The notes under the pieces: model-generated
Told to the model about the DNA's origin: nothing
Seen by the model: the letters and a program-made list of their open reading frames with translations, nothing else
Database searches by the model: none
Shown here: positions 1 through 32,000 of the stretch, piece after piece
Layout: the number at the start of each line of letters is the position of its first letter
How positions within the stretch are numbered: the first letter of the stretch is position 1
Program-made: the position numbers and the translations under genes
Assembly: GCF_003314995.1 (NCBI RefSeq)
Contig: NZ_QNRH01000014.1
Span: 4,056 to 36,055, forward strand
From: Pseudochrobactrum asaccharolyticum
GTDB taxonomy: Bacteria > Pseudomonadota > Alphaproteobacteria > Rhizobiales > Rhizobiaceae
Length of the DNA: 32,000 nt
Reading direction: 5' to 3'

Positions 1-304
1 GCAGCATGTTGGTATGACTAGGGTTGTTTATATTACGTAAATGCCTTTTTCGTGATGCTAACCAAATTTTACAAATAGTCGGTACTATTGAGGGTGGCTT
101 TATTCCTCATTTCCATTTGGTCAGTCCCATCAAGTCATCCGGGCGAATGGAAAGACATATTGGTAGTGGAGACTTGTTGAGTTTCAAATATTGCAATCGT
201 TATATTTATGTGTATATAGCGATTGGCAGTATTTGAATGAAATGTATTAGATCATGTAGTGTGCGTGCTGTTGCAAGGCTAAGTGCTCGTCGCTATATTG
301 AGGC

Positions 305-1153
305 ATGTCTGATGCATTAAGGATAGCAAGTGGTCGCTTCGGGAGGGTGGCTCTACTTGATATGGACAAACCTCTCGTACGCCATGCGCATCCGCATTGT
401 CACGTCCTGCTGAAGGTAGAGGGCGCGGATACCCAATTCTCTGTAAAAGACAGCTTGGTTCCTCTGACGGATGAAAGTGCAGTGCTCATCAATTCGTGGG
501 AGCCGCATGCCTATGAACATAACTGCATGATGCCCAAAACAATTATTTTGGCTCTGTATGTTGAACCAAAATGGCTCAGTTATTTCCGGCCAAACTGGGC
601 GGCGAGCAATTCTCCTGACTTTTTTGAGAAGAATGTTGGCGCGATTACGCCGCACATTCATAGCCTTACACGTACTCTGGCCGAAGCTATGATGTACGAA
701 CCTGAAAACGCCAAATACCATGAGACACTGCTTGCCGATTTGATGATCGCAGTGATCGAACGGTTTACGGCGTGGAAGGATGTGCAGGTCTCGGTTCGCG
801 ATATTGCAAGCCTGACATCTATTGATTTCAGAATCCGCAAGGCGATCCGGTTGATGAAGGAAGCACCGGAAACCATTGCCGATTTGGACGGATTGGCTTC
901 TAGCGTTGGTCTTTCCCGCGCACATTTTTATCGGCTGTTTGAAAGCGCTACGGGCGTTAGTCCGCGTATCTATATTAATGTCCAGAGGGTAGAGCAGGCT
1001 GTGATGGCACTATCTGACGGGTCGGTTCCGCTGGCGACAGTCGCTGATAGGCTCGGCTTTTCAGCCTCGTCACATTTCTCGAGATTTTTCCATGATAATG
1101 TCGGATCTACACCCAGTAGCTTTCGAAGTGCATCATTTCTCGCCAGCAAATAA
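305..1153 (+). CDS. AraC/XylS-family transcriptional regulator (282 aa)
   Basis: The C-terminal double HTH is typical of AraC (GLSRAHFYRLFESATGVSPRIY and VADRLGFSASSHFSRFFHDNVGSTPSSFR). The N-terminal half is His-rich and looks like a sensor domain. The gene lies directly upstream of, and co-oriented with, the Mo-hydroxylase operon. Confidence 0.85.
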   Translation: MSDALRIASGRFGRVALLDMDKPLVRHAHPHCHVLLKVEGADTQFSVKDSLVPLTDESAVLINSWEPHAYEHNCMMPKTIILALYVEPKWLSYFRPNWAASNSPDFFEKNVGAITPHIHSLTRTLAEAMMYEPENAKYHETLLADLMIAVIERFTAWKDVQVSVRDIASLTSIDFRIRKAIRLMKEAPETIADLDGLASSVGLSRAHFYRLFESATGVSPRIYINVQRVEQAVMALSDGSVPLATVADRLGFSASSHFSRFFHDNVGSTPSSFRSASFLASK

Positions 1154-1260
1154 TGAGACGATTTGGTAATTCGTAAGACAACCGGGCATCGAAACTGCAT
1201 CTTTAAAATTTCATAATCTCTTGTAGGCGCGGCTTAAAAAGCGCTGCAGGGGATTGGTGA

Positions 1261-16089: not shown

Positions 16090-17256
16090 ATGTCAAAATC
16101 AGATATCGTCATCGCGGCCTATTCGGAAACGCCTGTGCAATTCAAGTCTGGCCGCAGTGCTTATGATCTTGCAGGAGAAGCTTTCGCCCAGTTGCTTGAG
16201 CGTTCCGGCATTGCCAAGTCTGAAATTGATGGATTGTCCGTGACTGTTCCATTGAGTGAATGCAGCAATCCGTTTTTCGCGGTTTACATGAGCGAAGCAC
16301 TGGGGATCTCACCAACCTGGATGAATTATGGTGGTACCGGCGGCTGCTCTGCCACCGGTGGTGTTGCCCGCGCAATGTCTGCAATCCGTGACGGTCATTG
16401 TGAAGTTGCAATGGTTATGTCGGCGGATGCTCCTTCAACACGGTGGGCAGCCAATTACGGGGCTTATCGTGGCGAGTTTCAAGATCCGCAAGGCGTGCAG
16501 GGGCCACCGGCTGTATTCGGCCTTTTGATGAGCCGCTATGCTTATCAATATGACCTTAAACCTGAAGCTTTGGCAAAGATTGCAATCACGCAGCGCAATC
16601 ATGCATTGCTGAATGAAAATGGACTTGAAAAGTTTCGTAAACCTCTGAGCGAAGAGGATTATTTCGCTTCGAAAGTTATTGCTGACCCGTTGCGCGTGCT
16701 GGATTCGGTGATGTTCTGTGATGGTGCCAACGCCTTTCTTGTTATGAAACGTGAGAAGGCTGATGCGCTTGGGATCAAAACGTATGTCTATCCGACCGCC
16801 TATGCGGAACTGACCAATGTCAACGGATCGGATCCGCTGGCGGATGTAACCGAAACCGGATTTTCAAAAATCGCACCAAAAATCTGGCAGCAATCCGGGT
16901 TAAAACCGTCGGACATCTCGATGTTTCAACCCTATGACGATTTTACCATCGCCGTATTGATGAAGTTCGAGGATTTCGGGTTCTGTGGCCGGGGTGAAGG
17001 CAGTGATTTTGTCCTGTCTACTGATCTTAGCTTCAAGGGCTCTTTGCCGCTCAATACTGGTGGCGGACAGATTTCAGCGGGCCAACCCGGATTGGCAAGT
17101 GGTGGATTGAACCTTGCCGAGGCTGTTCGGCAACTTATGGGCGAGGGCGGTGAGCGTCAGGTCGCCAATCCTAAAAATGCACTTGTCACAGGTATTGGTG
17201 TTATCCCGTTCGCTCGTAACTGGGGTACCAGTGCTGCTATGATTTTGGAGGTCTGA
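16090..17256 (+). CDS. Thiolase-like (SCP-x / Ltp-type) protein, probably not a canonical thiolase (388 aa)
   Basis: It has thiolase-fold signatures (GGTGGCSATGGVARAMSAIRDG; LNTGGGQISAGQPGLASG). The His of the conserved GHP motif is Gln, and the C-terminal HN.G/C.G region is absent. A DUF35 gene follows 1 nt later. Confidence 0.8.
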   Translation: MSKSDIVIAAYSETPVQFKSGRSAYDLAGEAFAQLLERSGIAKSEIDGLSVTVPLSECSNPFFAVYMSEALGISPTWMNYGGTGGCSATGGVARAMSAIRDGHCEVAMVMSADAPSTRWAANYGAYRGEFQDPQGVQGPPAVFGLLMSRYAYQYDLKPEALAKIAITQRNHALLNENGLEKFRKPLSEEDYFASKVIADPLRVLDSVMFCDGANAFLVMKREKADALGIKTYVYPTAYAELTNVNGSDPLADVTETGFSKIAPKIWQQSGLKPSDISMFQPYDDFTIAVLMKFEDFGFCGRGEGSDFVLSTDLSFKGSLPLNTGGGQISAGQPGLASGGLNLAEAVRQLMGEGGERQVANPKNALVTGIGVIPFARNWGTSAAMILEV

Positions 17257-17257
17257 T

Positions 17258-17674
17258 ATGTCCGAACTCGCTAATTTACGTCCAATCCCAAAACCGAATA
17301 CCTTTGTTAATACCGATGCTTTTTGGGACGGAGCGCGCCGTAAGGAACTGTGGCTGCAATATTGCCTCGATACCGGCAAGTTCCAGCACTATCCGCGTCC
17401 AGTATCGATCTACACGGGTTCCCGAAACCTGGAATGGCGTCAAGTGTCCGGAAAGGGCGTTGTCTATGCCGCCACGGTCATCCGTATTCCCGGCGTCGGC
17501 CTTGAAGGCCGTACACCACTTAATACCTGCACCATCGATCTTGATGAGGGGGCGCGGCTTTTGGGCAATATCACCAATGCTGAGCCCGGTGCAGTTGCTA
17601 TTGGTGCGCGGGTAGAGCTGGATTGGGAAAAGCTCGCCGATGACATCTATTATCCGGCCTTTCGGTTGGTATAA
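17258..17674 (+). CDS. DUF35/OB-fold protein (thiolase-like partner subunit) with a degenerate Zn ribbon (138 aa)
   Basis: FWDGARRKELWLQYCLDTGKFQHYPRPVSIYTGSRNLEWRQVSGKGVVYAATVI matches the DUF35 pattern. Three of the four ribbon cysteines are replaced by Thr, Ser and Thr. Confidence 0.8.
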   Translation: MSELANLRPIPKPNTFVNTDAFWDGARRKELWLQYCLDTGKFQHYPRPVSIYTGSRNLEWRQVSGKGVVYAATVIRIPGVGLEGRTPLNTCTIDLDEGARLLGNITNAEPGAVAIGARVELDWEKLADDIYYPAFRLV

Positions 17675-17689
17675 CTTGGAGAGTTTGCC

Positions 17690-19249
17690 GTGCGTCTTGA
17701 AAATATTTTGTTCTCCCATTCTCTGAGCCAACCAGAGAAAACTGCACTTATCTGCGGAGAAAATCGGCTCAACTGGGGTGATTTGGGTAACCGGGTCCGT
17801 TCTGTTGCGCGGGGCTTGGCGGCGCGCGGCATTGGCAGTGGTGACAAGGTTATTCTCTATATGTCAAACCAGATCGAGTTCGCCGAAGCGTTTTTCGGCG
17901 TTCTCGCAACTGGAGCGGTGGTGGTTCCTGCCACAACACGTATCAGTCCCCATGAACTTGCCTATTTTCAAGCAGATAGTGGCGCAGGATTGATCATTTG
18001 TGATGCAAATCTTGCAGAAAAAGTCGCCGCTGAAGTTTCTGTGGGTGCAGAAATTTACACTGTAGGAGAGACAATCTCAGACTTTGCTGATTTTTCATGT
18101 TTGCGCCAATCTGGCACTACCCCCTTGCCACCAATTCCGCTTGAACAGGACGAAGCGGCTATTCTCTACACCTCAGGTACAACCGGTCAGCCTAAGGGTG
18201 TGGTGTTAACCCATGCGAATATCCTCGTCTGTCATGGCTATATGAATGCTGTTGAATGGGGGATTAACGGCGACGATATCTATCTCGTTGTTTCCCCCAT
18301 GGCACATCGTGCCGGAATGGGGCGGATGATCAATGCACTGATGCTTGGTGGTACGCTGAATATCCTTAGCCGCTTTGATCCGGACGATGTGCTCTCCATC
18401 ATTGAAAGGGAACAGGTGACTGTACTGGGTCTCGTTCCAACAATGTGCCGGATGATGATGCCGGTTCTGGAGGCAGATCCGCAACGCGCTGCCTCATTAC
18501 GCCGACTGGCTGTGACGGGGGAAGCTTTTCCGGTGCCGTTGAAAGAACGGCTGATTGCCTTGCTGCCAAATCTCGAAATCGTTTCTTTCTTTGGCATGAC
18601 CGAAGCAGGTGGTGTGACGGGGCTGATGCATCGTGAACAATTCACACATGCCGGCTCGGTGGGACGACCTTGCCCCGGAGTGGAAGTCAGGATCACAGAC
18701 GAGGATGGCCGTGACGTTATGGATGGTGAGGCGGGAGAGCTTTTAGTTCGCGCCGGACGTCCCGGGGCTTTCACGGTGATGAAGGGATATCTGAATAACC
18801 CTGAGCAGACTGAAGCTGCATTTAGCGATGGATGGTTCCGTACCGGCGATATGGCACGCCGCGATGCTGATGGGTATCTCTATATTGTTGATCGTAAGAA
18901 AGACATGATCGTATCAGGCGGGCTCAATATCTATTCGAAAGAAGTCGAACAGACGATCACCGAACTGCCCGGTATCGCTGATGTCGCGGTCATCGCTGTC
19001 CCTGATGATGTTTTTGGTGAGAGTGTTGTGGCGGTGATTGAACCTGAAAAGGGGGCAGTTGCCCCGGATAAAAATCAGATCGTCGAACATTGCCGGCAGC
19101 GCATTGCCGGTTACAAGAAGCCCAAATATGTCCTTTACCGAAGCGAACTGCCACGCAACGCTACGGGCAAAATTCTTAAGCGTGACCTTCTGCCATGGGC
19201 GGTTGCGGAAATCACTGCGACAACGGATCAGGCGAAGGTGGCATCATGA
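17690..19249 (+). CDS. AMP-dependent acyl-CoA synthetase (519 aa, GTG start)
   Basis: ILYTSGTTGQPKGVVLTH, WFRTGDMARRDADGYLYIVDRKKDMI and GKILKRDL. GGAGAG lies upstream of GTG 17690. Confidence 0.9.
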   Translation: MRLENILFSHSLSQPEKTALICGENRLNWGDLGNRVRSVARGLAARGIGSGDKVILYMSNQIEFAEAFFGVLATGAVVVPATTRISPHELAYFQADSGAGLIICDANLAEKVAAEVSVGAEIYTVGETISDFADFSCLRQSGTTPLPPIPLEQDEAAILYTSGTTGQPKGVVLTHANILVCHGYMNAVEWGINGDDIYLVVSPMAHRAGMGRMINALMLGGTLNILSRFDPDDVLSIIEREQVTVLGLVPTMCRMMMPVLEADPQRAASLRRLAVTGEAFPVPLKERLIALLPNLEIVSFFGMTEAGGVTGLMHREQFTHAGSVGRPCPGVEVRITDEDGRDVMDGEAGELLVRAGRPGAFTVMKGYLNNPEQTEAAFSDGWFRTGDMARRDADGYLYIVDRKKDMIVSGGLNIYSKEVEQTITELPGIADVAVIAVPDDVFGESVVAVIEPEKGAVAPDKNQIVEHCRQRIAGYKKPKYVLYRSELPRNATGKILKRDLLPWAVAEITATTDQAKVAS

Positions 19250-20397
19250 TCCGGCCAGAAACAGCAGTAGAAGCGGAGTTCCGTGCGGAGCTTCGCGGGT
19301 GGCTGGCAAAAGAGGTGCCGGCACATCTTGCCCACACGACGTTCAGGCCTGAACCTGCTGAAGCGACAGCATGGCATCGCAAATTGGCGCAAATGGGTTG
19401 GATCGCTCCGCATTGGCCTAAGGAATATGGCGGGATGGGAGCAAGTCCTGTTGAGCAGGTCATTCTCATGGAAGAACTTGCCCGTGCAGGTGCGCCGGAT
19501 TTGCCGACACAGGGACTGAACCATATTGGTCCTCTCCTGATGAAATCAGGAACCCATGCGCAGAAAGAGCAGCATCTGCCGAGGATTCTTTCGGGCGATA
19601 CGGTATGGTGTCAGGGCTATTCCGAACCTGAAGCCGGCTCGGATCTGGCCAGCTTGCAGACCAAGGCAAGGATTGAGGGATCGGAGCTGGTCATAGACGG
19701 ACACAAAATCTGGACAACATGGGGACATCACGCGGACTGGATGTTTGCCTTGGTTCGGACTTCGCCGGAGCGACGCGATGGGATTACTTTCGTGCTCTTT
19801 CCGATGAACACACCGGGTATCACTGTTAAACCAATCAAAACCATCGCAGGTGATGAAGAGTTTGCTGAGGTTTTTTTTGATGCTGTACGGGTGCCTATAG
19901 AAAATGTTGTCGGTTCAATTGGTGGTGGCTGGAAAGTTGCGACTTCGCTTCTTGATGAGGAGCGGATGCATCTGGGCACACCGGCGCTTACTAATCGGGC
20001 CCTGGTCCGGTTACAGCGATTAGTACAGAATATGCCTGCGGTATCGCGCGATGAATGGCAAATTCGCCTTGAACAAGCGCGGGCAAAGGTTGAAGTCGTG
20101 ACAGCCGCATTCCTCGATACGGCTGAGCGTTTTGAGACCGGTGTGGCGGTCGTCAACGAGTCAAGTTATCTCAAAATTCTGAACACAGAGACTGTGCAGG
20201 GGATATTAGAATTGGTGTTTGAGGCTGCCGGAGCACTTGGCGCGCGACAGGGCTCGTTAATCGAAAGTGGTATGCGGATCGATCTGAATGAAATGTATCT
20301 GCAGTCGCGCCGTTTAACTATCTATGGCGGTTCCAATGAGATTCAGAGATCTATTTTAGCCAACCGTGTGCTGGGTTTGAACGGAGGGCGCACCTGA
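19246..20397 (+). CDS. Acyl-CoA dehydrogenase, probable catalytic alpha subunit of a heteromeric pair (383 aa)
   Basis: ACAD motifs WCQGYSEPEAGSDLASLQTKA, DGHKIWTTW and C-terminal IYGGSNEIQRSILANRVLGL. ATG 19246 overlaps the ligase stop (ATGA). The ORF is open from 19195, but that stretch overlaps the ligase coding region. Confidence 0.88.
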   Translation: MIRPETAVEAEFRAELRGWLAKEVPAHLAHTTFRPEPAEATAWHRKLAQMGWIAPHWPKEYGGMGASPVEQVILMEELARAGAPDLPTQGLNHIGPLLMKSGTHAQKEQHLPRILSGDTVWCQGYSEPEAGSDLASLQTKARIEGSELVIDGHKIWTTWGHHADWMFALVRTSPERRDGITFVLFPMNTPGITVKPIKTIAGDEEFAEVFFDAVRVPIENVVGSIGGGWKVATSLLDEERMHLGTPALTNRALVRLQRLVQNMPAVSRDEWQIRLEQARAKVEVVTAAFLDTAERFETGVAVVNESSYLKILNTETVQGILELVFEAAGALGARQGSLIESGMRIDLNEMYLQSRRLTIYGGSNEIQRSILANRVLGLNGGRT

Positions 20398-21395
20398 TGC
20401 CGGTATGGTCACAAGAGGATCGTCTGATTGCTGATAGCGCGGATGCGTTGTTTGCAGATACCGGCGGCCTGACCGGCCTGCGGTTGGGGAATGGGCGGAC
20501 ATTGGCACGCATTCGTGCTGAGGGCTGGGCGGGTGTCCTGCTCGATGAAGAACAAGGGGGGCTGGGTTTCGGACTGCGTGGCGCAGCGATTGTTATGCAG
20601 TCGGCAGGCCGTAATCTATCACCAGAACCACTCGCTGCTATGATAGCAGTCGCATGGCTGCTTGGCACGATAGGTGAAGGCACACTTGTGTCTGAGTTGA
20701 TGTCAGGGCAGCAGATAATTTTGTCAGCGCACGCTCAATGGGATGGTGAACGCTATGTCACGGGGGCGATACCGGGAATAGCCGTTGCCGATCATCTGGT
20801 TGTATTCTGCTCTGATGACCAATCACTGCGCCTGATCAATTGTAAAAATGCCAAAGATCCTGAGGTTGACATTGATATATTTTCAACTGTTGATTTTGGA
20901 AGTTCGGGCGCGGCGTCCTTTGCAAAGGGTGCGGGAACGATTTTGTGCGTTGGTAAGATAGCAACGGAACTGGCTGAGAAAATTGAAGATCTGGTTCGGC
21001 TGTTCCATGCTGCTGAACTGGTTGGCATCGCAGCACAGGCGCTAACAATCGTGTCAGACTATGTCAAAATACGGCAGCAATTCGGTGTCTCCTTATCCAG
21101 CCATCAGGTTATCCAGCACCGTCTTGCATCAGTGCATGTACAAATTGCAGCTGCAGAGGCGATTGTCTATGAGGCAGTGCGTGCGGTTGATGGGGAGCAA
21201 CGCCGGTTTGGGGTAAAGACTGCCTATCAGCAAGCCCGTCACGCTGCAGAGTTGTCAACCCGCGAAGCTATCCAATTTCATGGTGGAATTGGTTTTACCG
21301 ATGAATGCGATATCGGGCTGTTTTTCAAACGCGTGATGGGGATTGCTGCAGCTCAAAATGGATGCTTGCCGGTGATTGAGGAGCGAGTAGCATGA
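20397..21395 (+). CDS. Acyl-CoA dehydrogenase-like protein, shorter beta-type subunit (332 aa)
   Basis: ACAD-like N-terminus (AEGWAGVLLDEEQGGLGFG) and IQFHGGIGFTDECDIGLFFKRV. The protein ends before the C-terminal catalytic-base region. It is joined to the upstream ACAD by a TGATG overlap. Confidence 0.8.
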   Translation: MPVWSQEDRLIADSADALFADTGGLTGLRLGNGRTLARIRAEGWAGVLLDEEQGGLGFGLRGAAIVMQSAGRNLSPEPLAAMIAVAWLLGTIGEGTLVSELMSGQQIILSAHAQWDGERYVTGAIPGIAVADHLVVFCSDDQSLRLINCKNAKDPEVDIDIFSTVDFGSSGAASFAKGAGTILCVGKIATELAEKIEDLVRLFHAAELVGIAAQALTIVSDYVKIRQQFGVSLSSHQVIQHRLASVHVQIAAAEAIVYEAVRAVDGEQRRFGVKTAYQQARHAAELSTREAIQFHGGIGFTDECDIGLFFKRVMGIAAAQNGCLPVIEERVA

Positions 21396-22837
21396 CTTTA
21401 ATGACTGAAAAATATGGCCCTTTAACACTCTTTATCGATGGCGAATGGATCTCCGTCTCGGATAGTGGCGAAGATGTGTATAATCCTGCAACCGGGGAGG
21501 TCATTGCCAGATTACCTCATGCGAGTGCTTCCGATATCGACCGCGCAGCACAGGCCGCTGCCCGTAGTTTTCCGGCATGGCGCGCTCTGACTGCACTTGA
21601 GCGCAGTCGCATTTTGCGACGTACTGCCGATCTCTTACGTGAGCGTGCTGATCATATCGCCTGGCTGCTTAGTACCGAGCAGGGGAAAGCTCTGGGGGAG
21701 GCGCGGATAGAAGTTATGGTTTCGGCCGAAACACTGGATTGGTGTGCAGAAGAGGGGCGCCGTATCTACGGGCGGATCGTTCCCAGCCCGTATCCACAGG
21801 TGGAATATCGTGTGCTCAAGCAACCGGTCGGGCCTGTTGCTGCTTTTACCCCGTGGAATTTTCCGTTGATGATGCCTGCACGCAAAGTGGCCTCAGCGCT
21901 TGCATCCGGTTGCACGATCGTTCTTAAACCTGCGGAAGAAACCCCCGCTGCGGCAATTGAACTTGCGCGTGCTTTTCATGATGCGGGGCTACCTGACGGT
22001 GTCTTGAACATCGTTTTTGGTAATCCTGCCGAAGTATCGGAACAACTCATTGCTCATGAGGCTATCCGGAAAGTTACATTTACTGGTTCCACCGCTGTCG
22101 GTCAGCATCTTGCTGGTCTGGCCGCGCGCCACGGAGCCAAGCGCTGTACTATGGAGCTTGGCGGTCATGCGCCGGTACTGATCCTTGAGGATGCAGATCT
22201 TGAGCGGGCAATTTCGTTATTGGCACCGTTCAAATTCCGCAATGCCGGACAGGTTTGTATTTCACCAACACGATTTTACGTACATGACAGTCTGCATGAT
22301 CGTTTTGTTGATGGCATGGTTTGTGCCGCTACTAAACTGAAGATCGGATCAGGTGTTGAAGAGGGCGTGCAGATGGGCCCGCTGGCCAATCCGCGCCGGG
22401 TTTCAGCCATGCGTGAACTGGTCGATGATGCAATTGCGCAGGGCGCGCGCTGTATGACCGGCGGTAATCTTGTTGGTAATCGGGGCAATTTTTTTGCGCC
22501 TACTGTATTGGCCGATGTGCCTGAAAGCGCCCGTATTATGAATGAGGAGCCTTTTGGCCCCATCGTCGTCACCGCCCGTATCCATAATACGCAAGAAGCA
22601 ATTACACAGGCAAACCGGCTTCCGTTTGGATTGGCCTCTTATGCCTTTACCAGTTCGGCGCATAATATCAGTATGCTGGCTGATGGGGTTGAAGCGGGCA
22701 TGCTTGGCGTGAACGCAATCGCAGTATCAACACCGGAAGCACCATTTGGTGGTGTGCGCCACAGTGGTTATGGGAGCGAGGGTGGCATTGAGGGCATGGA
22801 GCCTTATTTGGTTACCAAACTGCTTGCACAAGGATGA
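21392..22837 (+). CDS. NAD(P)+-dependent aldehyde dehydrogenase (481 aa; GabD / semialdehyde-dehydrogenase-like)
   Basis: YNPATGEVIA, catalytic-Glu motif MELGGHAP, catalytic-Cys motif FRNAGQVCISPTRFYV, and EEPFGPI. ATGA overlap with the upstream gene. Confidence 0.92.
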   Translation: MTLMTEKYGPLTLFIDGEWISVSDSGEDVYNPATGEVIARLPHASASDIDRAAQAAARSFPAWRALTALERSRILRRTADLLRERADHIAWLLSTEQGKALGEARIEVMVSAETLDWCAEEGRRIYGRIVPSPYPQVEYRVLKQPVGPVAAFTPWNFPLMMPARKVASALASGCTIVLKPAEETPAAAIELARAFHDAGLPDGVLNIVFGNPAEVSEQLIAHEAIRKVTFTGSTAVGQHLAGLAARHGAKRCTMELGGHAPVLILEDADLERAISLLAPFKFRNAGQVCISPTRFYVHDSLHDRFVDGMVCAATKLKIGSGVEEGVQMGPLANPRRVSAMRELVDDAIAQGARCMTGGNLVGNRGNFFAPTVLADVPESARIMNEEPFGPIVVTARIHNTQEAITQANRLPFGLASYAFTSSAHNISMLADGVEAGMLGVNAIAVSTPEAPFGGVRHSGYGSEGGIEGMEPYLVTKLLAQG

Positions 22838-23203
22838 TAACGTTTAGTAAATTTGGTTTTACCTAATATGAATCGTCGGTAGTGTTTATGATTGATGCCG
22901 TTTGACATCTCACTGATATCTGCTTTTTGAAGCATGACTTATAAGCTCATGAAGGATATATCAGTGGTGACGGGAGCAAGATTTCTCAATATGGTTTGCC
23001 TGTACATTTCGAATGCGCTCTATCGCGAGACTACCAGGCCCCAAATGGCATGCAATAGGGACAACTTCATCAGAAGAAATCGTGATACCACTGCTCGTGG
23101 ATAGGGTTTCTGTTCTTAGTGAGCATTCCAAAACTGCTCCACAAGGAGTTTCAGCCCTATGAGATTCGGCGAAGTTAAGACTGAAAATGCAGTGGGAGCA
23201 ATT

Positions 23204-23683
23204 CTAGCGCCAGCCGCCATTGATACCCTTGTCGAGCGTCGGCTTGTCGCGCTTGACGGTGAAGGCCGTGAAGATGGTGTAGGTGAGGCCAAGCCATAGC
23301 ACCACGGCCAACACCCACAACGCCTTTCCGGCGACGAGGTCCTCACGCAAGACCATGAACTGGCTAGCCAGGATGCCGGTGCCAGCGACCGCCGTGAAAT
23401 AGCCGGGTCCGGTCAGATGGGTGAACATGTCACCGAAAAACCGCGCCGGATAGCGCCAGGCCCGGAGGGCGTAGAGGACGCATAACAGGCCGTATTGTCC
23501 GATATTCAGGTAGAAAAGGCTCGATGCCAGCGGGCCATACTCCATCATGTGCGCCGCCAGAGAAATGATGCCCGTGGCCATCACGAGACCGAAATAGGCC
23601 GGCGACATATCGGCGAGGCCGAAGCCCGGTCGCTCTGGTTGTGAATTGCTGATCGCGCTGGTCATCGCCCGGCCACCATCCAT
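23204..23683 (-). pseudogene. 3'-truncated TehA/Mae1 (TDT) family tellurite-resistance/dicarboxylate transporter; only ~159 N-terminal codons remain
   Basis: MSPAYFGLVMATGIISLAA...FTHLTGPGYFTAVAGTGILASQ...INGGW is the N-terminal half of a TDT-family protein. I expect these to be roughly twice as long, with 10 TM segments. The reading frame stops (INGGWR*) exactly where base composition switches. Confidence 0.7.
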
Positions 23684-23718
23684 CGCAGCCTTTGAAATCT
23701 GGCCTTGTCGCCCGGCAT

Positions 23719-24441
23719 CTAATTCCCGGCTCGTGCATTCAAGCGTCGGAGGTCAGGCACAATGATCAGACGATTGTTCTCGATGCAGATGATCTTATCG
23801 TTGCGTAACCGCGTCAACTGGCGACTGACCGTTTCGATGGTAAGGCCGAGGAAATCGGCAATGTCGGCCCTGGTGAGCGGCAGATCGAAACGTGCGAAGT
23901 TACGGCCTGCCTTCCCGGATGGCTCGGCATGACGGGCAAACATCAACAACAGGCTCGCGATCTTCTCGCTTGCTGTTTTGCGACCGAGTGTCACCATCCA
24001 GTCGCGTGCTTCATCCAGTTCGTCGAGCGCCTGCTTGTAGAGCCGGCGTTCCAGTTCTGGCGATTCCTGCATCATCCGTTCGATGGCTTCTCTAGGGAAG
24101 GAGCAGAGTACGACTTCTGTGGCGGCTTCCGCATTGAGCTGACTCTCGGCTCGAAATGGTCGGCCGAGGAAATCAGGGGCGAACTGGTGGCCAACGATCT
24201 GCTGGCGCCCGTCGGACAGCGTCTTGGTCAGCTTCACCACACCCGACAGGATATTGGCATATCGGTCGATCCGCTCAGCCTCACCCAAGAGAGCAGCCCC
24301 GCCTTCAACTGCGGATTTGCGCGAAGACCTGACCAGTTCGTGGAGCTGATGGCAGTCCAGCGTACTGCAAATGCCCTTGTTACGCCCCTCGCATGAGGCG
24401 CATAGCATGGGAACGGCATCTTTTGGGATATCCCTGCGCAC
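23719..24441 (-). CDS. Crp/Fnr-family regulator of the FNR/FnrN type with an N-terminal Cys cluster (240 aa, GTG start)
   Basis: N-terminal CASCEGRNKGIC plus a central Cys (VVLCSF), consistent with [4Fe-4S] ligands. C-terminal HTH LTRADIADFLGLTIETVSRQLTRL. AAGGTGG lies 7 nt upstream of GTG 24441. Confidence 0.88.
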   Translation of the reverse strand: MRRDIPKDAVPMLCASCEGRNKGICSTLDCHQLHELVRSSRKSAVEGGAALLGEAERIDRYANILSGVVKLTKTLSDGRQQIVGHQFAPDFLGRPFRAESQLNAEAATEVVLCSFPREAIERMMQESPELERRLYKQALDELDEARDWMVTLGRKTASEKIASLLLMFARHAEPSGKAGRNFARFDLPLTRADIADFLGLTIETVSRQLTRLRNDKIICIENNRLIIVPDLRRLNARAGN

Positions 24442-24520
24442 GACATTGCCACCTTTAGGGTCACTATAGCATCTTCAATCCTAGCATGCCCCGCGTTAGT
24501 TCGTCTTGCGAACGTGGTCT

Positions 24521-24534
24521 TTGCGTAAGGTCAA
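24521..24534. promoter_or_regulatory. Candidate FNR/FixK box (anaerobox) upstream of the fnr-like gene
   Basis: TTGCGTAAGGTCAA matches TTGA-N6-TCAA at 7 of 8 specified positions, about 80 nt upstream of the fnr-like start codon. Confidence 0.3.
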
Positions 24535-24708
24535 GTATACCGGATTGATGATGATGGTTTGTGTAAAAGTCTTTGGCCGCATTCCTGGAGCATTTACACG
24601 ATCTGGTCGGCAGAAAATTCAGGTAGTTCCAGCCCAGAGATTTCACCATATCGCGATACTGGACGTAGCGAATGCCTGTCGACTCGCCAGCGCAGTCGTC
24701 GCGAGCCA

Positions 24709-25104
24709 CTATCTTGGCCATCGGATCTTTACCGCAACTGTCGAAATAGCAACCCAGATGCCGAGCCGCAGGACCATCGCGGCCATCGTGCGGCTCTCGT
24801 AGGCCTCGCCGCGCCAGACGTGCCAGAGGAAGAAAGCAAGGACCACGGCCGTGGTCGCTGCGATACCGATGGACAGGGCAGGCGCCCAGGCCGTGCCGCG
24901 CCATAGTCCGATCCCTGCCAGCAGATAGGCGAAGCCGGCCACGAAGTTGAACCACAGCACGAATGGAACCACCGCTCCCATATCAGCGCCGCCGAAGAGT
25001 GCGCGGCCGCCCGAAATGACGGTGGCCAGGCCAAACACGACCGCCACACCGGAAGCGATGGAATGAGAGAGGGGTCTTGCGGTCATGGTATTCTCCTGTG
25101 TCAT
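24709..25104 (-). CDS. Small hydrophobic membrane protein of unknown function (131 aa, ~4 TM)
   Basis: Four hydrophobic segments are visible. The start overlaps the ABC ATPase stop (ATGA at 25101-25104), so it is the last gene of the exporter operon. Codon and GC usage match the neighbouring genes. Confidence 0.6.
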   Translation of the reverse strand: MTQENTMTARPLSHSIASGVAVVFGLATVISGGRALFGGADMGAVVPFVLWFNFVAGFAYLLAGIGLWRGTAWAPALSIGIAATTAVVLAFFLWHVWRGEAYESRTMAAMVLRLGIWVAISTVAVKIRWPR

Positions 25105-25793
25105 GCGTCGGCCAGCCTGCCGTCGCGCAGGTGAATCAGGCGGTCGAAACGGTCAAAAATCTTCTCGTCATGGGTGACGGTGACGATGCAGGCTTCCTGC
25201 TCAGCGGCAAGCTTGCGCAACAGGTCCATCACCAGCCCGGCCCGCTTGCTGTCGAGCGCGGCGGTCGGTTCGTCGGCCAGAATGATGCGGGGGCGGTTGG
25301 CCAGCGCCCGCGCAATGGCCACCCGCTGCGCCTCGCCACCTGACAGGAGCGCCGGCTTGGCCGCGGCGCGACGGCTGACTTCAAGATAATCGAGCAGTTC
25401 GCGTACTCGCGCCTGACCCTTCTCAACCGACCAGCCGGCGAGATGAAGGACCACGGCGACGTTCTCCTCGGCGGTCAGGAAAGGCAAAAGGTTGTGCGTC
25501 TGGAAGATGAAACCGATCTTGTCGAGCCTGAGCCTCCTCAGGTCGTGCCGCAGCCATTGCCTGTCGAACACCGTCTCGCCGTCCAGCGTTACCTTGCCCG
25601 CCGATGGCGCCAGGATGCAGCCGATGACGTTGAGCAGCGTGGTTTTGCCCGAGCCCGAGGGGCCAAGAAGCGCGACCACCTCTCCGGCGCGGACCTGAAG
25701 GTCGACGTCGCGCAGCGCATCGACACGGGTTTCGCCCTCGCCAAAATGCTTGGCCACACCCTTCACATCGATCAGGATTTCGCCGTCCGTCAT
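25101..25793 (-). CDS. ABC transporter ATP-binding protein, MacB/LolD/DevA-like (230 aa)
   Basis: Walker A GPSGSGKTT, signature LSGGEAQRVAIARAL, Walker B IILADEPTAALD. Confidence 0.93.
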   Translation of the reverse strand: MTDGEILIDVKGVAKHFGEGETRVDALRDVDLQVRAGEVVALLGPSGSGKTTLLNVIGCILAPSAGKVTLDGETVFDRQWLRHDLRRLRLDKIGFIFQTHNLLPFLTAEENVAVVLHLAGWSVEKGQARVRELLDYLEVSRRAAAKPALLSGGEAQRVAIARALANRPRIILADEPTAALDSKRAGLVMDLLRKLAAEQEACIVTVTHDEKIFDRFDRLIHLRDGRLADA

Positions 25794-25794
25794 G

Positions 25795-26928
25795 TCAGCT
25801 CCCTAGAGCCGTGGCCGGATCGACCTTCATTGCCGCCCGCACGCCAAGGCCTGAGGCGGCGATGCAGACGGCGAAGATGATCCCGGCCAGCACCATCACA
25901 TTGAACGGTTCCAGCACCACCCGGCGCGGGAAATAATCCTTTACTGTCAGGATCAGCAGTAGTCCGATCCCCCAGCCCGAAGCGCCGAGGATCAGCGCCT
26001 GCTGCACAATCAGCCCTATGATGGTGCGGTCGGGCGCGCCGATGAGCTTCAGCGTGGCAATCTGCTTCAGTTTCTCCATCGTCATCGTGTAGATGATCAG
26101 CGCGATCACTACCGCTGAAACGCTGAGCAGGATGCCAAGGAACAGGCCGATTTGTCGCCGCGCCAGATCGACCACCGATGAAACCAGAATGTCCTCCTGC
26201 TCGGCTTGCGTCAGCGCCGCCAGATGTTTCCACTGCCGCACGGTCGCGGTCAGCAATTCGACATCCGCGCCCGGCGCTACCCGTGCGATCACGGCCGCGA
26301 CCGAGGCGGACTTGACCGAAACGGTGCCCCGCGCCGCCTGAACGCGCTGCGCTGCCGGGTCAAGCTCTGTCTGTAGCGCCATCGCGTCCGCCAGCGTGAT
26401 ATAGACCGCCGGATCGCCGCCCGCGTTCATTGCCCCTTCGACCAGCCCGACCACGATGAAGCGGTTGCGCCCGAGACGGATCGTCTCGCCGGTCAGAAGA
26501 CCGGTCTTGCGATCTGCCACCAGTTCGAAGTGGCTTGTGCCGATGCCGCGTCCCTCGGCGATGCGCTGCGGGCCGCCGGGATGTCCCGGTTCATAGCCGA
26601 TGACGTAGAGCCGCAGCGACGCGCCGGCATGGGCAGCCTCGATGTTCTGGAAATTGATTGCGCCGGCTGCGGCCACGCCGGGCATCCGCGCCACGGCGTC
26701 GCGCGTTGTCAGCGGGATGTTCGAGGCTTCGGCGAACGGCCCCTTGGTGCCGCTCTCGACCACCCAGACGTCTGCTGCCGGCGCCTTCACGACCGCCAGC
26801 GCATCGGCGACAAGGCCGTTATAGATGCCGATCATCGACAGCACGACCGTCATCAAGAGCCCCAGCCCGAAACAGGTGAGGACGAAGCGGAACAGTCCGT
26901 GGCGTATATCTTTGAGAGCAAGGTTCAT
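25795..26928 (-). CDS. ABC exporter permease, FtsX/MacB-type (DevC-like, 377 aa)
   Basis: N-terminal TM segment, a large periplasmic domain, then a C-terminal FtsX-type 3-TM bundle (LKLIGAPDRTIIGLIVQQALILG). ATGA overlap with the adaptor gene. Confidence 0.88.
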   Translation of the reverse strand: MNLALKDIRHGLFRFVLTCFGLGLLMTVVLSMIGIYNGLVADALAVVKAPAADVWVVESGTKGPFAEASNIPLTTRDAVARMPGVAAAGAINFQNIEAAHAGASLRLYVIGYEPGHPGGPQRIAEGRGIGTSHFELVADRKTGLLTGETIRLGRNRFIVVGLVEGAMNAGGDPAVYITLADAMALQTELDPAAQRVQAARGTVSVKSASVAAVIARVAPGADVELLTATVRQWKHLAALTQAEQEDILVSSVVDLARRQIGLFLGILLSVSAVVIALIIYTMTMEKLKQIATLKLIGAPDRTIIGLIVQQALILGASGWGIGLLLILTVKDYFPRRVVLEPFNVMVLAGIIFAVCIAASGLGVRAAMKVDPATALGS

Positions 26929-28073
26929 GGCGTTGTCCTGGTCCGCGCCCGCCGCCCCTCGGTCGCGCCTTGCGGTATCCGGGCGACGATGGCGGCACCT
27001 TCCGGCAGGCTGCCCATGACCTCGACCCGGCCACGATCGTCGCGCGCGCCAAAAGTCAGTTCAGCCTGTTCCAGCCGTCCGTCCCGCACCAGCCAGACCC
27101 GGCCGCGATGCCCGTCGAAACCGGTGATCGCCACCTCCGGCACCATCAGAGCACTGTTGCGGTTGCCGGTGGTGATGCGCACTTCGGCCTGTTCGCCGAG
27201 ATACATCGGCTGGGGGCAGTCCGTGCAGGTCAGCCAGATCCGGCGTTCCTCATTCACCCGGTCGCTTTCAAGACCGATGCGGGCGATGATGCCTTGGAAC
27301 TCAGCCTGCGGCTGCGAGCGCAGCCGGATCGTGCCGGCCTGGCCAAGCGCAAGCTGGCCGGCGCGCTCCTCATCAACATAGGCCTGGATCCAGACCGTTT
27401 CGGGAGCAATCAGGGTGAAGATCGGATCGCCGGCCCGCACCACTGTTCCCGCTTCAGCATGGCGCGTAACGATCACCGCGTCATAGGGTGCGGTCAGAAG
27501 ATGACGGGCGAGAAGGACCTTCTCCTGTTGCAGGGCTGCCGCCGCGTCCGTGCCCTGAGCACGGATCACCGCCACATCCGCCTCGGCGACCGCCAGATCG
27601 GCATGGGCCACGTCCTCGTCACGCTGCGCTTCCTCGGCGCGCTGGATCGAGGTCACATCGCGCTGCGCCAATCCCTGCTGACGCTGATTTGCCGTCTGGC
27701 GCTGCGCCAGTACGCTGCGGGCACGCGCCACCGTGGCCTCGGCGCGGGCTAAGGCGGCGACATTGGCCGCGACAGCAGCGCGGGCACGGGCGGTACGCGC
27801 CTCCTGCTCGGCTGGATCGAGGGTCGCCAGTTCCTGCCCCCTGACTACTCGGTCGCCGACGTCGGCGGCCAGCCCGGTCAGGGCAGCCCCAACCTCAAAT
27901 CCAACCCGGCTGAGAATCCGTGCCTCGACCGAGCCGAGGCCGTAGATGCGCAGGGCTACATCCTGCTCTGGTTGCACCACGCTGACCGTGATCGGCCGCT
28001 CGGTGAGGAACAGCACACCCGCGCCCAACACCAGAACCGCCGCTACCGCACCGTAGATCCACCGACGTCCCAT
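26925..28073 (-). CDS. HlyD-family periplasmic adaptor (membrane fusion protein, 382 aa)
   Basis: N-terminal anchor, a long Ala/Arg/Gln-rich coiled-coil (AEQEARTARARAAVAANVAALARAEATVARA...), and beta-barrel-like C-terminal segments. Confidence 0.88.
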   Translation of the reverse strand: MGRRWIYGAVAAVLVLGAGVLFLTERPITVSVVQPEQDVALRIYGLGSVEARILSRVGFEVGAALTGLAADVGDRVVRGQELATLDPAEQEARTARARAAVAANVAALARAEATVARARSVLAQRQTANQRQQGLAQRDVTSIQRAEEAQRDEDVAHADLAVAEADVAVIRAQGTDAAAALQQEKVLLARHLLTAPYDAVIVTRHAEAGTVVRAGDPIFTLIAPETVWIQAYVDEERAGQLALGQAGTIRLRSQPQAEFQGIIARIGLESDRVNEERRIWLTCTDCPQPMYLGEQAEVRITTGNRNSALMVPEVAITGFDGHRGRVWLVRDGRLEQAELTFGARDDRGRVEVMGSLPEGAAIVARIPQGATEGRRARTRTTP

Positions 28074-28076
28074 GGC

Positions 28077-28528
28077 CTAATCCTCCTTCGCGGCCAGTAG
28101 CCGCAATTGCACGTCGAGGAGCCGCTTTCCTTCCCCGATCAGGGAGAAGTTGCGCGCCCCGAGCGACCAGCGGATCGCCATCCCCTGAACCAGCGACGTC
28201 AACAGAACGGCGGCATCCTCTGGGGCGACTTCGCGGCGCAAGAAGCCAGCGTCCTGACCGCGAGCCAGTTCGGCCACGATCAAACCCTGAAACTTCATCA
28301 GCAGGCCGCGAAAGGCCGCACGCAAATCCTCATTGCCGACATTCAGCTCGCGCGAGAACAGCAGCATCGGCAGCGCCGGTGTGGAAACAATCTGCCTCAG
28401 TTGCGCGGCCATCAGCGCCTTGACCCGGTCGATGGGGCCATCAGTCCCAGCCAGGGCCCGATCCGGTCCGCCAGGTCGAGGACGGCCGCGACGATTTCGG
28501 CCTTGCGCAATTCCGCGGATTTTCGCAT
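28077..28528 (-). pseudogene. TetR/AcrR-family regulator, apparently disrupted: two reading frames with the HTH segment missing
   Basis: ATG 28528 opens MRKSAELRKAEIVAAVLDLADRIGP, a typical TetR N-terminus, which then runs into a stop at 28412-28414. The TetR-C-like part (...IDRVKALMAAQLRQI...LVQGMAIRWSLGARNF...) is in another frame. The whole locus has room for only ~150 codons, and no frame encodes an HTH. Confidence 0.6.
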
Positions 28529-28537
28529 AAAGTACCT

Positions 28538-28559
28538 AGTAAGTGAGCAGTCACATACT
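28538..28559. promoter_or_regulatory. Candidate TetR operator palindrome in the tetR / lysR divergent spacer
   Basis: AGTAAGTGA-gcag-TCACATACT has 8 of 9 complementary positions per arm. It lies 10 nt upstream of the tetR start codon. Confidence 0.4.
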
Positions 28560-28679
28560 TAAGTGTAACAATGATCGTGGTCAAGCTTTTCTGACGGGGC
28601 AAAGCGAATGCGCGGTGTTGCCGGCAAGATGGCGACAAGCTGCCGGCAATGGGAGCAGGCTTGGAAGAGGTGATCCTTC

Positions 28680-29603
28680 ATGGATGCACAGAACCAGAAC
28701 TGGGACGATCTGCGCTTCTTTCTCGCTGTGGCCCGGGCGGGCACGCTGTCTGGCGCAGCACGCAGCCTTGGCGTAACGCACTCGACCGTGTTTCGCCGTC
28801 TCGGCGCCTTCGAGGAACGTCTGGGCGTCCGGCTCTTCGAGCGGCTGCCGGACGGCTATGCGCTGACGGGCGCCGGAGAGGCCATGCAGGAGACCGCCAT
28901 CCGGATCGACGAGGAAATTATCGCCCTGTCGCGTCAGGTGACCGGACAGGACCAGCGCCTGAGCGGGCTTATCCGCATCATAGCCATCGATATGCTGGCG
29001 ATCGGGTTATTGCCGCCGCATCTGGCAGCCTTCCATGCAGCGCAACCAGGGATCGAATTGGAAGTGATCGTTTCGGACACTCCCCTGGACCTGACCCGAC
29101 GCGAGGCCGATGTCGCACTGCGCATCTGCAACACGCCGCAGGAAATATTGGTCGGTCGGCGCGTCGGCCGGCTGGCCTTCGGAGCCTATGCCTCGGCAGA
29201 ACGCGCCGCTCAGGGGCTCGATGAGGATCTTGCCGGCAGCGACTGGATCGGCTTCGGCCGGTCACATGGGGCGATCGGCCATCAGTTGGCGGATTGGCTG
29301 CCGAAAATGCGGCCGATCTATCGCACCAATTCGATCTCGGCTGCGATTGCCGCAGCACGGGCCGGAATCGGCCTTGCGCCGCTGCCCTGCGCCGTGGCCG
29401 ACCGCACCCCCGACCTTGTCCGGATCGCCATGTTTCCGGAAGATTTCCAGCTCGATCTGTGGCTGCTGACCCATGAGGATCTGCGCAACACCGCCCGTAT
29501 TCGCGTCTTCATGGATTTCATGGCTGATGCGCTCGCCACCGACGCCGACCTTCTGGAAGGCCGTCGTCCGCAGGCTGGTCCTGCCCGGACAACCACGGCA
29601 TGA
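28680..29603 (+). CDS. LysR-family transcriptional regulator (307 aa)
   Basis: WDDLRFFLAVARAGTLSGAARSLGVTHSTVFRRLGAFEERLGVRLFER is a LysR HTH. AAGAGG lies upstream of the ATG. Confidence 0.92.
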   Translation: MDAQNQNWDDLRFFLAVARAGTLSGAARSLGVTHSTVFRRLGAFEERLGVRLFERLPDGYALTGAGEAMQETAIRIDEEIIALSRQVTGQDQRLSGLIRIIAIDMLAIGLLPPHLAAFHAAQPGIELEVIVSDTPLDLTRREADVALRICNTPQEILVGRRVGRLAFGAYASAERAAQGLDEDLAGSDWIGFGRSHGAIGHQLADWLPKMRPIYRTNSISAAIAAARAGIGLAPLPCAVADRTPDLVRIAMFPEDFQLDLWLLTHEDLRNTARIRVFMDFMADALATDADLLEGRRPQAGPARTTTA

Positions 29604-29789
29604 TTCATCCGTTATCTCTCTTGCGGTGTCCGGTCCTGTGGATACTATTTGCGATGCTGATGAAACGACAAGGTGCGCGCTTCGGCAGTCACCTGTTTGT
29701 TCCATTGCCCCATTACTGGGACAATGATCGCATGCGCCCTCTCAGGGCGTCTGGCGTGCCCCGGAAATCGCGAGCATCACGGAGAGATC

Positions 29790-31025
29790 ATGCCCGCCAA
29801 TGACACGCTGAATGCCGCGGCCCAAAGCCGACGACAAGGAACGCCCGGCGAGGTTCTGGCCGCCTTCCTGAAACTGGGCCTGACCTCCTTCGGGGGACCG
29901 ATCGCGCATCTGGGCTATTTCCGCGAGGAATTCGTTGCCCGGCGCGGCTGGATCGACGATCGTGGCTATGCCGATCTGGTCGCGCTGTGCCAGTTCCTTC
30001 CGGGGCCAGCATCCAGCCAGGTCGGCTTCGCATTGGGCTTGCAGCGTGCCGGACCGGCGGGTGCGCTGGCTGCCTGGCTCGGTTTTACCTTGCCTTCCGC
30101 CCTGCTACTGATGCTGTTTGCGCTCGGAGCTGGGGCGTTTTCAGGCCCGCTTGGCATCGGGGTGCTCCACGGGTTGAAACTGGTGGCGGTGGCCATCGTG
30201 GCGCAGGCGGTCTGGGGGATGGCGCGCACGCTCTGCCCCGACCGCTCACGCCAGACGATCGCGCTCGCCGCCGTCCTGATGGTGGTGCTGATCGGGGGCG
30301 CGACGGGCCAGGTGGGTGCAATTCTGCTCGGTGGACTTGCCGGGCTCTGGCTTTGCCGGGACACGGCGGGAGAGACGGGTGAAGCGCTGCCCTTCCCGGT
30401 CTCGCGACAGGCGGGGATAGTCGCGCTGGCCCTGTTCTTCATCCTGATCTTCGGCCTACCGCTGGCGGCGGCGCTGTTTCCCGCGCAGGGGTTGGCGGTG
30501 ATCGACGCGTTCTATCGCGCCGGTGCGCTGGTATTTGGCGGCGGCCATGTGGTCTTGCCTTTGCTGGAAGCCGAAGTGGTTCGCCCGGGCTGGGTCACGC
30601 CCGATGCGTTCCTGGCCGGCTATGGCGCGGCCCAGGCGGTGCCGGGGCCGCTCTTCACCTTCGCCGCCTATCTCGGCATGTTGCTCGAACCCGGCCCGAA
30701 CGGGATCGCCGGCGCGACGCTCGCCCTTCTTGCGATCTTCCTGCCGGGCTTCCTGCTGCTTGTCGGCGCGCTGCCGTTCTGGAACACGCTGCGCGCACGC
30801 TCCGGCGTGCGGGCGCCGATGGCAGGGGCCAATGCCGCGGTGGTCGGCATTCTGGGCGCTGCGCTCTACGATCCGCTCTGGACCAGCTCGGTCGGTTCGC
30901 CCCGTGACTTTGCGCTGGCGCTGACCTGCTTCGTGGCCCTGATGAGCTGGAAATTTCCGCCCTGGCTCGTGGTGCTGATCGCGGCTGCCGGCGGTGCGGT
31001 CCTGGAGGTAAGCTCGATGCTGTGA
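29790..31025 (+). CDS. chrA: Chromate ion transporter (CHR family, two-domain ChrA, 411 aa from ATG 29790)
   Basis: FLKLGLTSFGGPIAHLGYFREEFVARRGWI, with a repeated second-half motif (ALVFGGGHVVLPLL...GYGAAQAVPGPLFTFAAYLG), is the CHR signature. GGAGAG lies just upstream of ATG 29790. The 39 codons from 29673 look non-native. Confidence 0.88.
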   Translation: MPANDTLNAAAQSRRQGTPGEVLAAFLKLGLTSFGGPIAHLGYFREEFVARRGWIDDRGYADLVALCQFLPGPASSQVGFALGLQRAGPAGALAAWLGFTLPSALLLMLFALGAGAFSGPLGIGVLHGLKLVAVAIVAQAVWGMARTLCPDRSRQTIALAAVLMVVLIGGATGQVGAILLGGLAGLWLCRDTAGETGEALPFPVSRQAGIVALALFFILIFGLPLAAALFPAQGLAVIDAFYRAGALVFGGGHVVLPLLEAEVVRPGWVTPDAFLAGYGAAQAVPGPLFTFAAYLGMLLEPGPNGIAGATLALLAIFLPGFLLLVGALPFWNTLRARSGVRAPMAGANAAVVGILGAALYDPLWTSSVGSPRDFALALTCFVALMSWKFPPWLVVLIAAAGGAVLEVSSML

Positions 31026-31170
31026 TGGAAAAGGAATAACGGAACCTGATCGACCGGCAATGTAACGCCAGCCTGCATGGCGCACCGCTGCCCGGTTTCC
31101 CCAGCCACTGCCGCCGTCGCGGCACAGCCAGGAACACAAATTGCAAATCGACCTTTCTTCCGACCGCTTT

Positions 31171-32000
31171 ATGACAGCATTGACCGGCATCACACTTGCC
31201 GGGATGGCGCTTGCGACTGTCGATGCCTTTTTGATCCCCGGTCTTTGGGGACCGGTCGGTCTCGTGCTGGTCTATCTGGCCGGTGGTGTGCCGACCGGGG
31301 TCCGAGCCCTGACGTCGCTCTGGCACGAGCGGGTTCTCGACATCGATCTTCTGATGATCGTGGCAGCCCTTGCCGCCGCCGCGGTGGGTGCTGCGCTCGA
31401 AGGGGCGGTGCTGCTGACGCTGTTCAGCCTCTCGACCACGTTGGAGCAGCGGGCGATGGGCCGGGCGCGCCATGCCGTCGAGGCGCTGATGGCGCTGCGT
31501 CCCGACACCGCGCTCAGGCGCGCTCCTGACGGCACCGTCACGGAAGTTTCGGTGGGCGATCTCGTGGCCGGCGACCTGGTGGTGTTGCGCCCCGGTGCGC
31601 GTGTGCCGGCCGATGGCGAGGTGGCGGAAGGGGAAGGCTCGCTCGATGAGGCGACGATCACCGGCGAATCGATGCCGGTCGGCAAGGGCCCCGGCGCAAA
31701 GGTGTTCGAGGCCACGGTGAACCTCAACGCCGTGCTGCTCGTCCGCGTTACCCGTCCGGTCGCGGAAAGCACCGTGGCGCGGATGATCGAACTGGTGACC
31801 GAGGCTCAGGCCGCACGCGCTCCTTCCGAACGGTTCAGCGCCTGGTTCGGCCAGCGCTATACCATCGCGGTGCTGGCCGGCGCGGTGCTGGCACTCATTA
31901 TATTCCTCGCACTCGGCTGGACAATGCAGGATGCGCTTTATCGCGCCGCGACGCTGCTGGTCGCGGCCAGCCCCTGCGCGGTAGTGATATCGGTCCCGGC
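31171..32000 (+). CDS. Heavy-metal translocating P1B-type ATPase, 5' partial (runs off the window). SPC motif and no N-terminal metal-binding domain, so P1B-4-like (Co/Zn type).
   Basis: My own translation of this frame gives MTALTGITLAGMALATVDAFL...DIDLLMIVAALAAAAVG...GDLVVLRPGARVPADGEV...DEATITGESMPV...AQAARAPSERF...ATLLVAASPCAVVISVP. The actuator TGES motif and an SPC transmembrane motif (31969-31977) are present. The ORF is absent from the ORF track because it has no stop in the window. TTG 31141, preceded by AGGAA, is an alternative start. Confidence 0.85.
   Translation, partial: MTALTGITLAGMALATVDAFLIPGLWGPVGLVLVYLAGGVPTGVRALTSLWHERVLDIDLLMIVAALAAAAVGAALEGAVLLTLFSLSTTLEQRAMGRARHAVEALMALRPDTALRRAPDGTVTEVSVGDLVAGDLVVLRPGARVPADGEVAEGEGSLDEATITGESMPVGKGPGAKVFEATVNLNAVLLVRVTRPVAESTVARMIELVTEAQAARAPSERFSAWFGQRYTIAVLAGAVLALIIFLALGWTMQDALYRAATLLVAASPCAVVISVP

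Follow-up and report, generated by a model that had tools for sequence, protein, structure and literature searches.

Replacement of variable-region cargo is known in ICEs and genomic islands of Alphaproteobacteria, for example in the Mesorhizobium symbiosis islands, and in the SXT/R391 hotspots. The locus described here resembles these systems in having a compositionally foreign element that adjoins a tRNA gene and carries its own recombinase, a cargo of toxin-antitoxin, anti-restriction and metal-resistance genes, an embedded catabolic module and mosaic variants. It differs from them in that the cargo is neither located in an intergenic hotspot nor flanked by IS or recombination-module genes; two blunt scars cut two genes of the island instead, and the conjugation genes are found off the same contig. 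The scar at this locus is of an ordinary kind, being a further case of a phenomenon already known.

A second point of reference is the hmf cluster for furfural, HMF and FDCA of Cupriavidus basilensis HMF14, with which the catabolic block in this locus agrees when the two are compared by domain order. Both sets comprise the Mo large, FAD and 2Fe-2S subunits, a CoA ligase, a crotonase, UbiD/UbiX and LysR. The present block departs from the hmf cluster in the fusion of CoxG to the large subunit, in having BenE (a transporter) and AraC as accessories, and in the side-chain operon of seven genes to which the module is joined.

The window, which is the whole stretch of 32,000 nucleotides that was analysed, corresponds to positions 4056-36055 of contig C14 (NZ_QNRH01000014.1) in a genome assembly of 4.65 Mb, 39 contigs and 50.8% GC. 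Its composition changes abruptly near 23.2 kb. We hold with good confidence that this change is a real recombination joint, and that the central part of a GC-rich mobile island gave way to a 23-kb block, by which a transporter gene was cut on one side and a DNA-polymerase gene on the other. The features on which this reading is based are listed below, in window coordinates unless given for C14.

C14 3402-4055, minus strand: dinB', 5'-truncated, left of the window, keeping the residues that correspond to 176-392
1-3 (C14 ~4055-4057), no strand: left joint
1-23208, no strand: catabolic block, ~50% GC (Pfam content; GC 0.504; tetranucleotide r 0.93 to the host; GC3 0.48)
21392-22837, plus strand: aldehyde dehydrogenase, last gene of the block (Pfam Aldedh, E 1.8e-157)
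22838-23208, no strand: non-coding tail of the block, 371 nt, ~43% GC, without a recognisable element
23207-23210 (breakpoint 23208/23209), no strand: right joint, from a base-by-base alignment with Aminobacter sp. Piv2-1
23204-23683, minus strand: tehA' remnant of the TehA/SLAC1 family, the first 158 of 358 codons plus an Arg codon and TAG supplied by the block
23719-24441, minus strand: FNR/CRP-family regulator, first intact gene of the GC-rich arm (Pfam cNMP_binding and HTH_Crp_2; colinear with Aminobacter)
23209-32000, no strand: right arm of the GC-rich island (Pfam content; 97% then 93% nucleotide identity to Aminobacter sp. Piv2-1)

Composition of the contig and gene content of the GC-rich arms

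The GC content in 1-kb windows was 0.47-0.55 up to ~23 kb, 0.57-0.58 at 23-25 kb and 0.62-0.69 at 25-32 kb, and in 100-bp windows it rose from 0.36-0.49 (22800-23199) to 0.58-0.64 (23200-23499). The mean GC3 also changed at ~23.2 kb, from 0.48 in the 19 left-side genes to 0.76 in the 8 right-side genes; the host value was 0.545 +/- 0.055 (948 long host ORFs). The discontinuity noted in the preliminary description was confirmed by GC, GC3 and tetranucleotides, but the 63-68% GC given there for the right side is reached only farther from the joint, the adjacent DNA being at 57-58%.

Contig C14 is 50.4 kb in length, with a GC content of 61-67% at 1-4055, ~50% at 4056-27263 and 60-67% at 27264-50389. 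When this layout was set against the 50.8% of the genome, the compositional outlier proved to be the GC-rich DNA (62-64% GC in the arms) and not the 23-kb block. The tetranucleotide correlation of the arms with the host was 0.52-0.62, and at 0.52-0.56 it fell below all 197 host 20-kb windows, while the block reached 0.92-0.93, which is the 13th percentile of the same windows. The two arms correlated with each other at 0.95 and with the block at 0.45-0.47. It is therefore the arms that deviate from the host in GC, tetranucleotides and GC3 in the manner of a genomic island. The catabolic block, initially described as the island, is host-like (r 0.93) and sits inside the foreign DNA. As a consequence for annotation, the composition jump is biological, and the catabolic genes are not the island but cargo that a mobile island carries.

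Other stretches with 59-63% GC were observed in the genome, namely C4:1-70000, C1:890001-910000, C23 and C37, and the tetranucleotide signature of C23 matched that of the arms (r 0.93-0.94). These stretches are probably the rest of the same island or sister islands.

In the left arm, a tRNA-Met gene (C14 104-180) is overlapped by the end of the gene for a 551-aa large serine recombinase (Resolvase, Recombinase and Zn_ribbon_recom domains). Beyond these lie the gene of a PIN (VapC) toxin, an ORF of 125 aa and the dinB' ORF. A recombinase of this kind adjoining a tRNA gene is a further property of genomic islands, and an integrase of the type that the preliminary description had suggested looking for is thus present beyond the window. 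The segment C14:1-180, including the tRNA-Met gene, recurs at the ends of contigs C5, C9, C11 and C18, which indicates that this tRNA gene is multi-copy.

The right arm encodes, within the window, a MacB-type ABC exporter with its HlyD adaptor, LysR, a chromate transporter and a P-type ATPase, and past the window more metal ATPases (three P-type ATPases in the whole arm), AbiEii and ArdC. In part of this arm, the identity is 92% to a Paracoccus versutus replicon and 83% to a Rhizobium plasmid. A check for conjugation genes found ArdC on C14, TraG/VirD4 in the separate GC-rich stretch C4:1-70000, which is not physically linked to C14, and no match to PF03135 (VirB4). The end of contig C14 is a repeat that also occurs in C18 and C23, and the right end of the island lies beyond the assembled contig. 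The GC-rich DNA is an integrative, probably conjugative element that adjoins a tRNA-Met gene.

The catabolic block and its two joints

According to Pfam, the block encodes AraC and a Mo-hydroxylase in which CoxG is fused to the large subunit and which also has FAD and 2Fe-2S subunits. A CoA ligase, a crotonase, BenE, UbiD, LysR, UbiX and an NMT1-type ABC importer were identified as well. These are accompanied by a seven-gene operon (crotonase, thiolase-like, DUF35, CoA-ligase, two ACAD and aldehyde dehydrogenase). Judging from domain content, the block is a putative hmfABCDE-like set of furoyl-CoA dehydrogenase, ligase and hydratase for furoate or furandicarboxylate, joined to a CoA side-chain operon. 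The nearest relatives of the aldehyde dehydrogenase, at 78% amino acid identity, occur in Ruixingdingia sedimenti (Rhodobacterales) and in a Logan contig (metagenome), both of which have a syntenic operon followed by a LysR gene. Neither 10 congeners nor 400 genomes of the order nor a set of 5.8 billion proteins yielded a donor of the block, the best match being at the same 78%.

The first ORF on the GC-rich side, which encodes 159 aa, matched the Pfam SLAC1/TehA model (PF03595) at positions 2-122 of 331 only. Full-length members of this family cover most of the 331 positions and measure ~320-400 aa, and the ORF is a truncated remnant of a member. A phmmer search with the 159-aa query against 1.84 billion representatives gave 1247 matches, and among the matches listed shorter fragments were in the majority. 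The alignments ended at query residue 158, a few of them earlier, which corresponds to approximately residue 150 of the full-length matches (~340-400 aa). Because they end inside full-length relatives, tehA' is truly truncated, and the lengths of these relatives contradict the possibility, allowed for initially, that members of ~160 aa are complete.

A scan of the genome collection with the 159-aa fragment identified an intact orthologue of 358 aa in Aminobacter sp. Piv2-1 (NZ_JARKMU010000012.1), identical over residues 1-158. This is the uninterrupted TehA-like gene for which a search in related genomes had been proposed, and it supports the earlier estimate that the transporter is cut about halfway, with 158 of 358 codons kept and intact relatives of ~350-360 aa. 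The base-by-base identity extends through ...GGCGGCTGGC and ends there, 5 nt within the annotated end of the tehA' ORF. Homology begins exactly at window position 23209 and continues at 97.4% nucleotide identity over C14 27264-32519 and at 92.9% over the next 5.1 kb. In Aminobacter, the intact gene is followed by an fnr-type regulator, a fused narK, narG and narH. The two loci are therefore alike in residues 1-158 (100% aa) and in the adjoining 5.2 kb (97% nt), whereas residues 159-358 and the subsequent nar genes are absent here. The composition change coincides with the truncation, as stated in the preliminary description. A search for the missing 3' half beyond the window had been proposed; residues 159-358 were not found by tblastn anywhere in the 4.65-Mb assembly, and a search of the assembly with the Pfam SLAC1 model matched the stump alone. 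From its sequence, tehA' is probably a dead, non-functional remnant.

The other end of the block had been placed outside the window. As the homology of metagenome contig APMI01002828.1 (L131) and of three more relatives (L133, L134 and L135) ends at C14 4054-4056, the left joint lies at window position ~1, where it truncates dinB. L131 is colinear with C14 119-4056 at 87.8% nucleotide identity and carries an intact dinB of 392 aa, compared with which the island dinB has lost ~175 N-terminal codons. The 209-aa ORF that is left (C14 3402-4031, minus strand) contains the IMS_C and HHH domains and no catalytic IMS domain according to Pfam. A tblastn search of the assembly with the first 185 residues of DinB from L131 returned only host paralogues at <=51% identity. 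Both tehA' and dinB' are pseudogene remnants. Beside its intact dinB, L131 carries an SOS-mutagenesis cassette (L131:3181-9494) with a possible imuA, then imuB and dnaE2, as well as an SRAP peptidase and an HTH-IrrE/M78 regulator.

The spacer between the aldehyde dehydrogenase gene and the tehA' ORF (22838-23203) contained no ORF >56 aa, no IS, no Rfam match or other RNA family, no promoter-like site and no direct repeat. Its six-frame translation revealed no paralogue in the genome and no coding remnant, and neither the spacer nor the junction sequence had a match in the plasmid collection. A remnant of LysR was also sought, and no trace of it was seen in the spacer, although LysR follows the aldehyde dehydrogenase in the two nearest relatives. 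ARAGORN detected no tRNA in the two contig stretches flanking the spacer, which were the parts scanned. The sole feature was a weak inverted repeat at 22911-22966 (20 nt, 80% complementary, 16-nt loop). The absence of ORFs, IS and direct repeats from the spacer, stated in the preliminary description, was confirmed. The repeat could be a weak terminator or operator.

How the joints may have arisen

The replacement of the island's middle would have started from a GC-rich (62-64%) island, integrative and probably conjugative, residing beside tRNA-Met in a 50.8%-GC host. By its RpoB, which has 89% identity to the Aminobacter protein and shares a 90% cluster with sequences from Brucella, Mesorhizobium and Phyllobacterium, this host belongs with the latter three genera. 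An internal stretch reaching from codon 159 of the tehA-like gene to approximately codon 175 of the island dinB would then have been lost. As neither missing gene half is found in the assembly, the 23.2-kb catabolic block would have taken the place of this stretch through two illegitimate joints, and the missing halves would fit deletion and replacement, not inversion or translocation. The joints themselves may be blunt scars made by homology-independent end joining or by replication slippage or template switching, rather than by transposition. Both breakpoints could be placed to within 1-3 nt, and microhomology of at most 1-3 nt is possible at the joints. At neither joint was there a transposase, IS, integrase, inverted or direct repeat, att-like site, target duplication or RNA motif, and no tRNA gene in the flanking stretches scanned. 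The two block ends share chance-level matches only, and no copies of the block or the spacer occur elsewhere in the genome, where only the contig-end repeats recur. The original proposal of a recombination joint that destroyed the transporter gene stands, in the form of a genuine joint without recognisable site-specific machinery.

Some of the evidence weighs against this account. The two arms were not found together in any one comparator. In L131, the 10 kb around dinB contain no tehA; Aminobacter does have a dinB, ~16 kb downstream of tehA and oriented like it, but at only 72% nucleotide identity. The former contiguity of the two arms in one element is therefore inferred and not observed directly. 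The nar cluster, located between tehA and dinB in Aminobacter, was considered as the replaced segment and rejected because of that low dinB identity; the closer left-arm relative L131 has SRAP, imuA/imuB and dnaE2 beside dinB instead. A target-site duplication is not expected, because the flanks of the block are not contiguous in relatives.

Ku and the LigD primase-polymerase were sought in the host and not found, and classical NHEJ in this host was rejected as an explanation for this reason; the event may date from an earlier host. A more specific form of the preferred reading is that the block was captured into the island without homology or IS, for example by linear-fragment end joining at a double-strand break without Ku/LigD, and now travels between hosts. 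We regard this version as unlikely. If it is true, the locus would be a natural, dated case of large-fragment 'filler' capture by which ICEs are given catabolic operons.

The block might also be native or long-resident chromosomal DNA on either side of which an island inserted separately, the arms being what is left after each eroded into a gene. Its host-like composition and the fact that both arms occur together in no comparator agree with this. The block was, however, not found in the 10 other species of the genus, and its last gene has nothing >58% aa among the 400 genomes of the order. Furthermore, the arms are of one compositional class (r 0.95) and have complementary island functions, with the recombinase and tRNA gene at one end and the ArdC/AbiE cargo at the other, and two illegitimate joints would be needed all the same. 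A native origin of the block is thus unlikely.

Delivery by an IS, a composite transposon or an ISCR-type rolling-circle element is a common route for catabolic cargo, and IS-adjacent deletions could subsequently have removed the island interior along with the IS. In Aminobacter, a fragment of an IS6-family transposase just upstream of dinB cuts a UbiD gene (L117:15525-16491), which points to IS activity at the site that corresponds to the left joint. The transposase, terminal inverted repeats and target-site duplication that characterise an IS or a composite transposon are nevertheless missing from both joints here, as are direct repeats, the resemblance between the block ends does not exceed chance, and neither block nor spacer is repeated in the genome. 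We consider such delivery very unlikely, and the capture of the block through two illegitimate joints remains our preferred reading.

Recurrence of the joints in independent contigs

The right joint was also found in data independent of the host assembly. A 1.2-kb stretch across it is present in runs from several studies. Among the contigs compared with window positions 17000-29000, one of 40,980 nt, assembled from a food-fermentation metagenome, crosses the joint with 0 differences and an even depth of 22. The joint is also crossed by a 10,206-nt contig of an unrelated biofilm metagenome (0 differences) and by a 1,431-nt contig from a run of another organism. The identical 159-aa product, flanked by FNR and the aldehyde dehydrogenase, was encoded on 9 contigs, which belong to at least 6 data sets, two NCBI assemblies among them. 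The left joint is present in three further runs. Both joints were seen at 100% identity in independently assembled contigs, including those of 50,174, 40,980 and 10,206 nt, all being short-read contigs and not single long reads.

Because the same joints occur in independently assembled contigs from several studies, the mis-assembly that the preliminary description had kept as an alternative is excluded. An assembly chimera or contamination, in which contigs of a GC-rich organism were misjoined to host DNA, would suit the abrupt composition jump and a draft assembly in 39 contigs whose contamination is estimated at 1.1%, yet it is exceedingly improbable given the identical joints in at least 6 runs or studies, the even depth across the joint, the lack of any assembler-misleading repeat at either joint and the two errors that two joints in one contig would require.

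One of the runs, SRR27755633, contains a variant of the island. As far as 24767 its sequence differed at a single position over 11.6 kb, and it was 97.8% identical from 24894 on, with a gap of ~130 nt (126-135, alignment-dependent) between the matching segments. The identity drop marks a recombination boundary between island variants. Since this run shares the joint and diverges beyond 24894, the right joint is present in at least two island variants, and it predates the diversification, or mosaic recombination, of the island. The segment absent from SRR27755633 (24759-24893; 135 nt, 45 codons) lies inside a 131-aa membrane-protein ORF (24709-25104, minus strand).

A literature search for papers citing the run or assembly accessions found none. 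The data sets with DNA bearing the module come from food fermentation, biofilm, freshwater, soil and wastewater. An hmf-like furoate/FDCA module, as putatively assigned, is hence found on probably transmissible DNA, which is relevant for tracking the spread of furan-detoxifying capacity. The contigs also provided a small observation on the right arm: the ORF at 28077-28562, upstream of the HlyD/MacB exporter, had no Pfam match in the window, and in the gene calls of other contigs it corresponds to a 111-aa product with a weak match to TetR_C_6.
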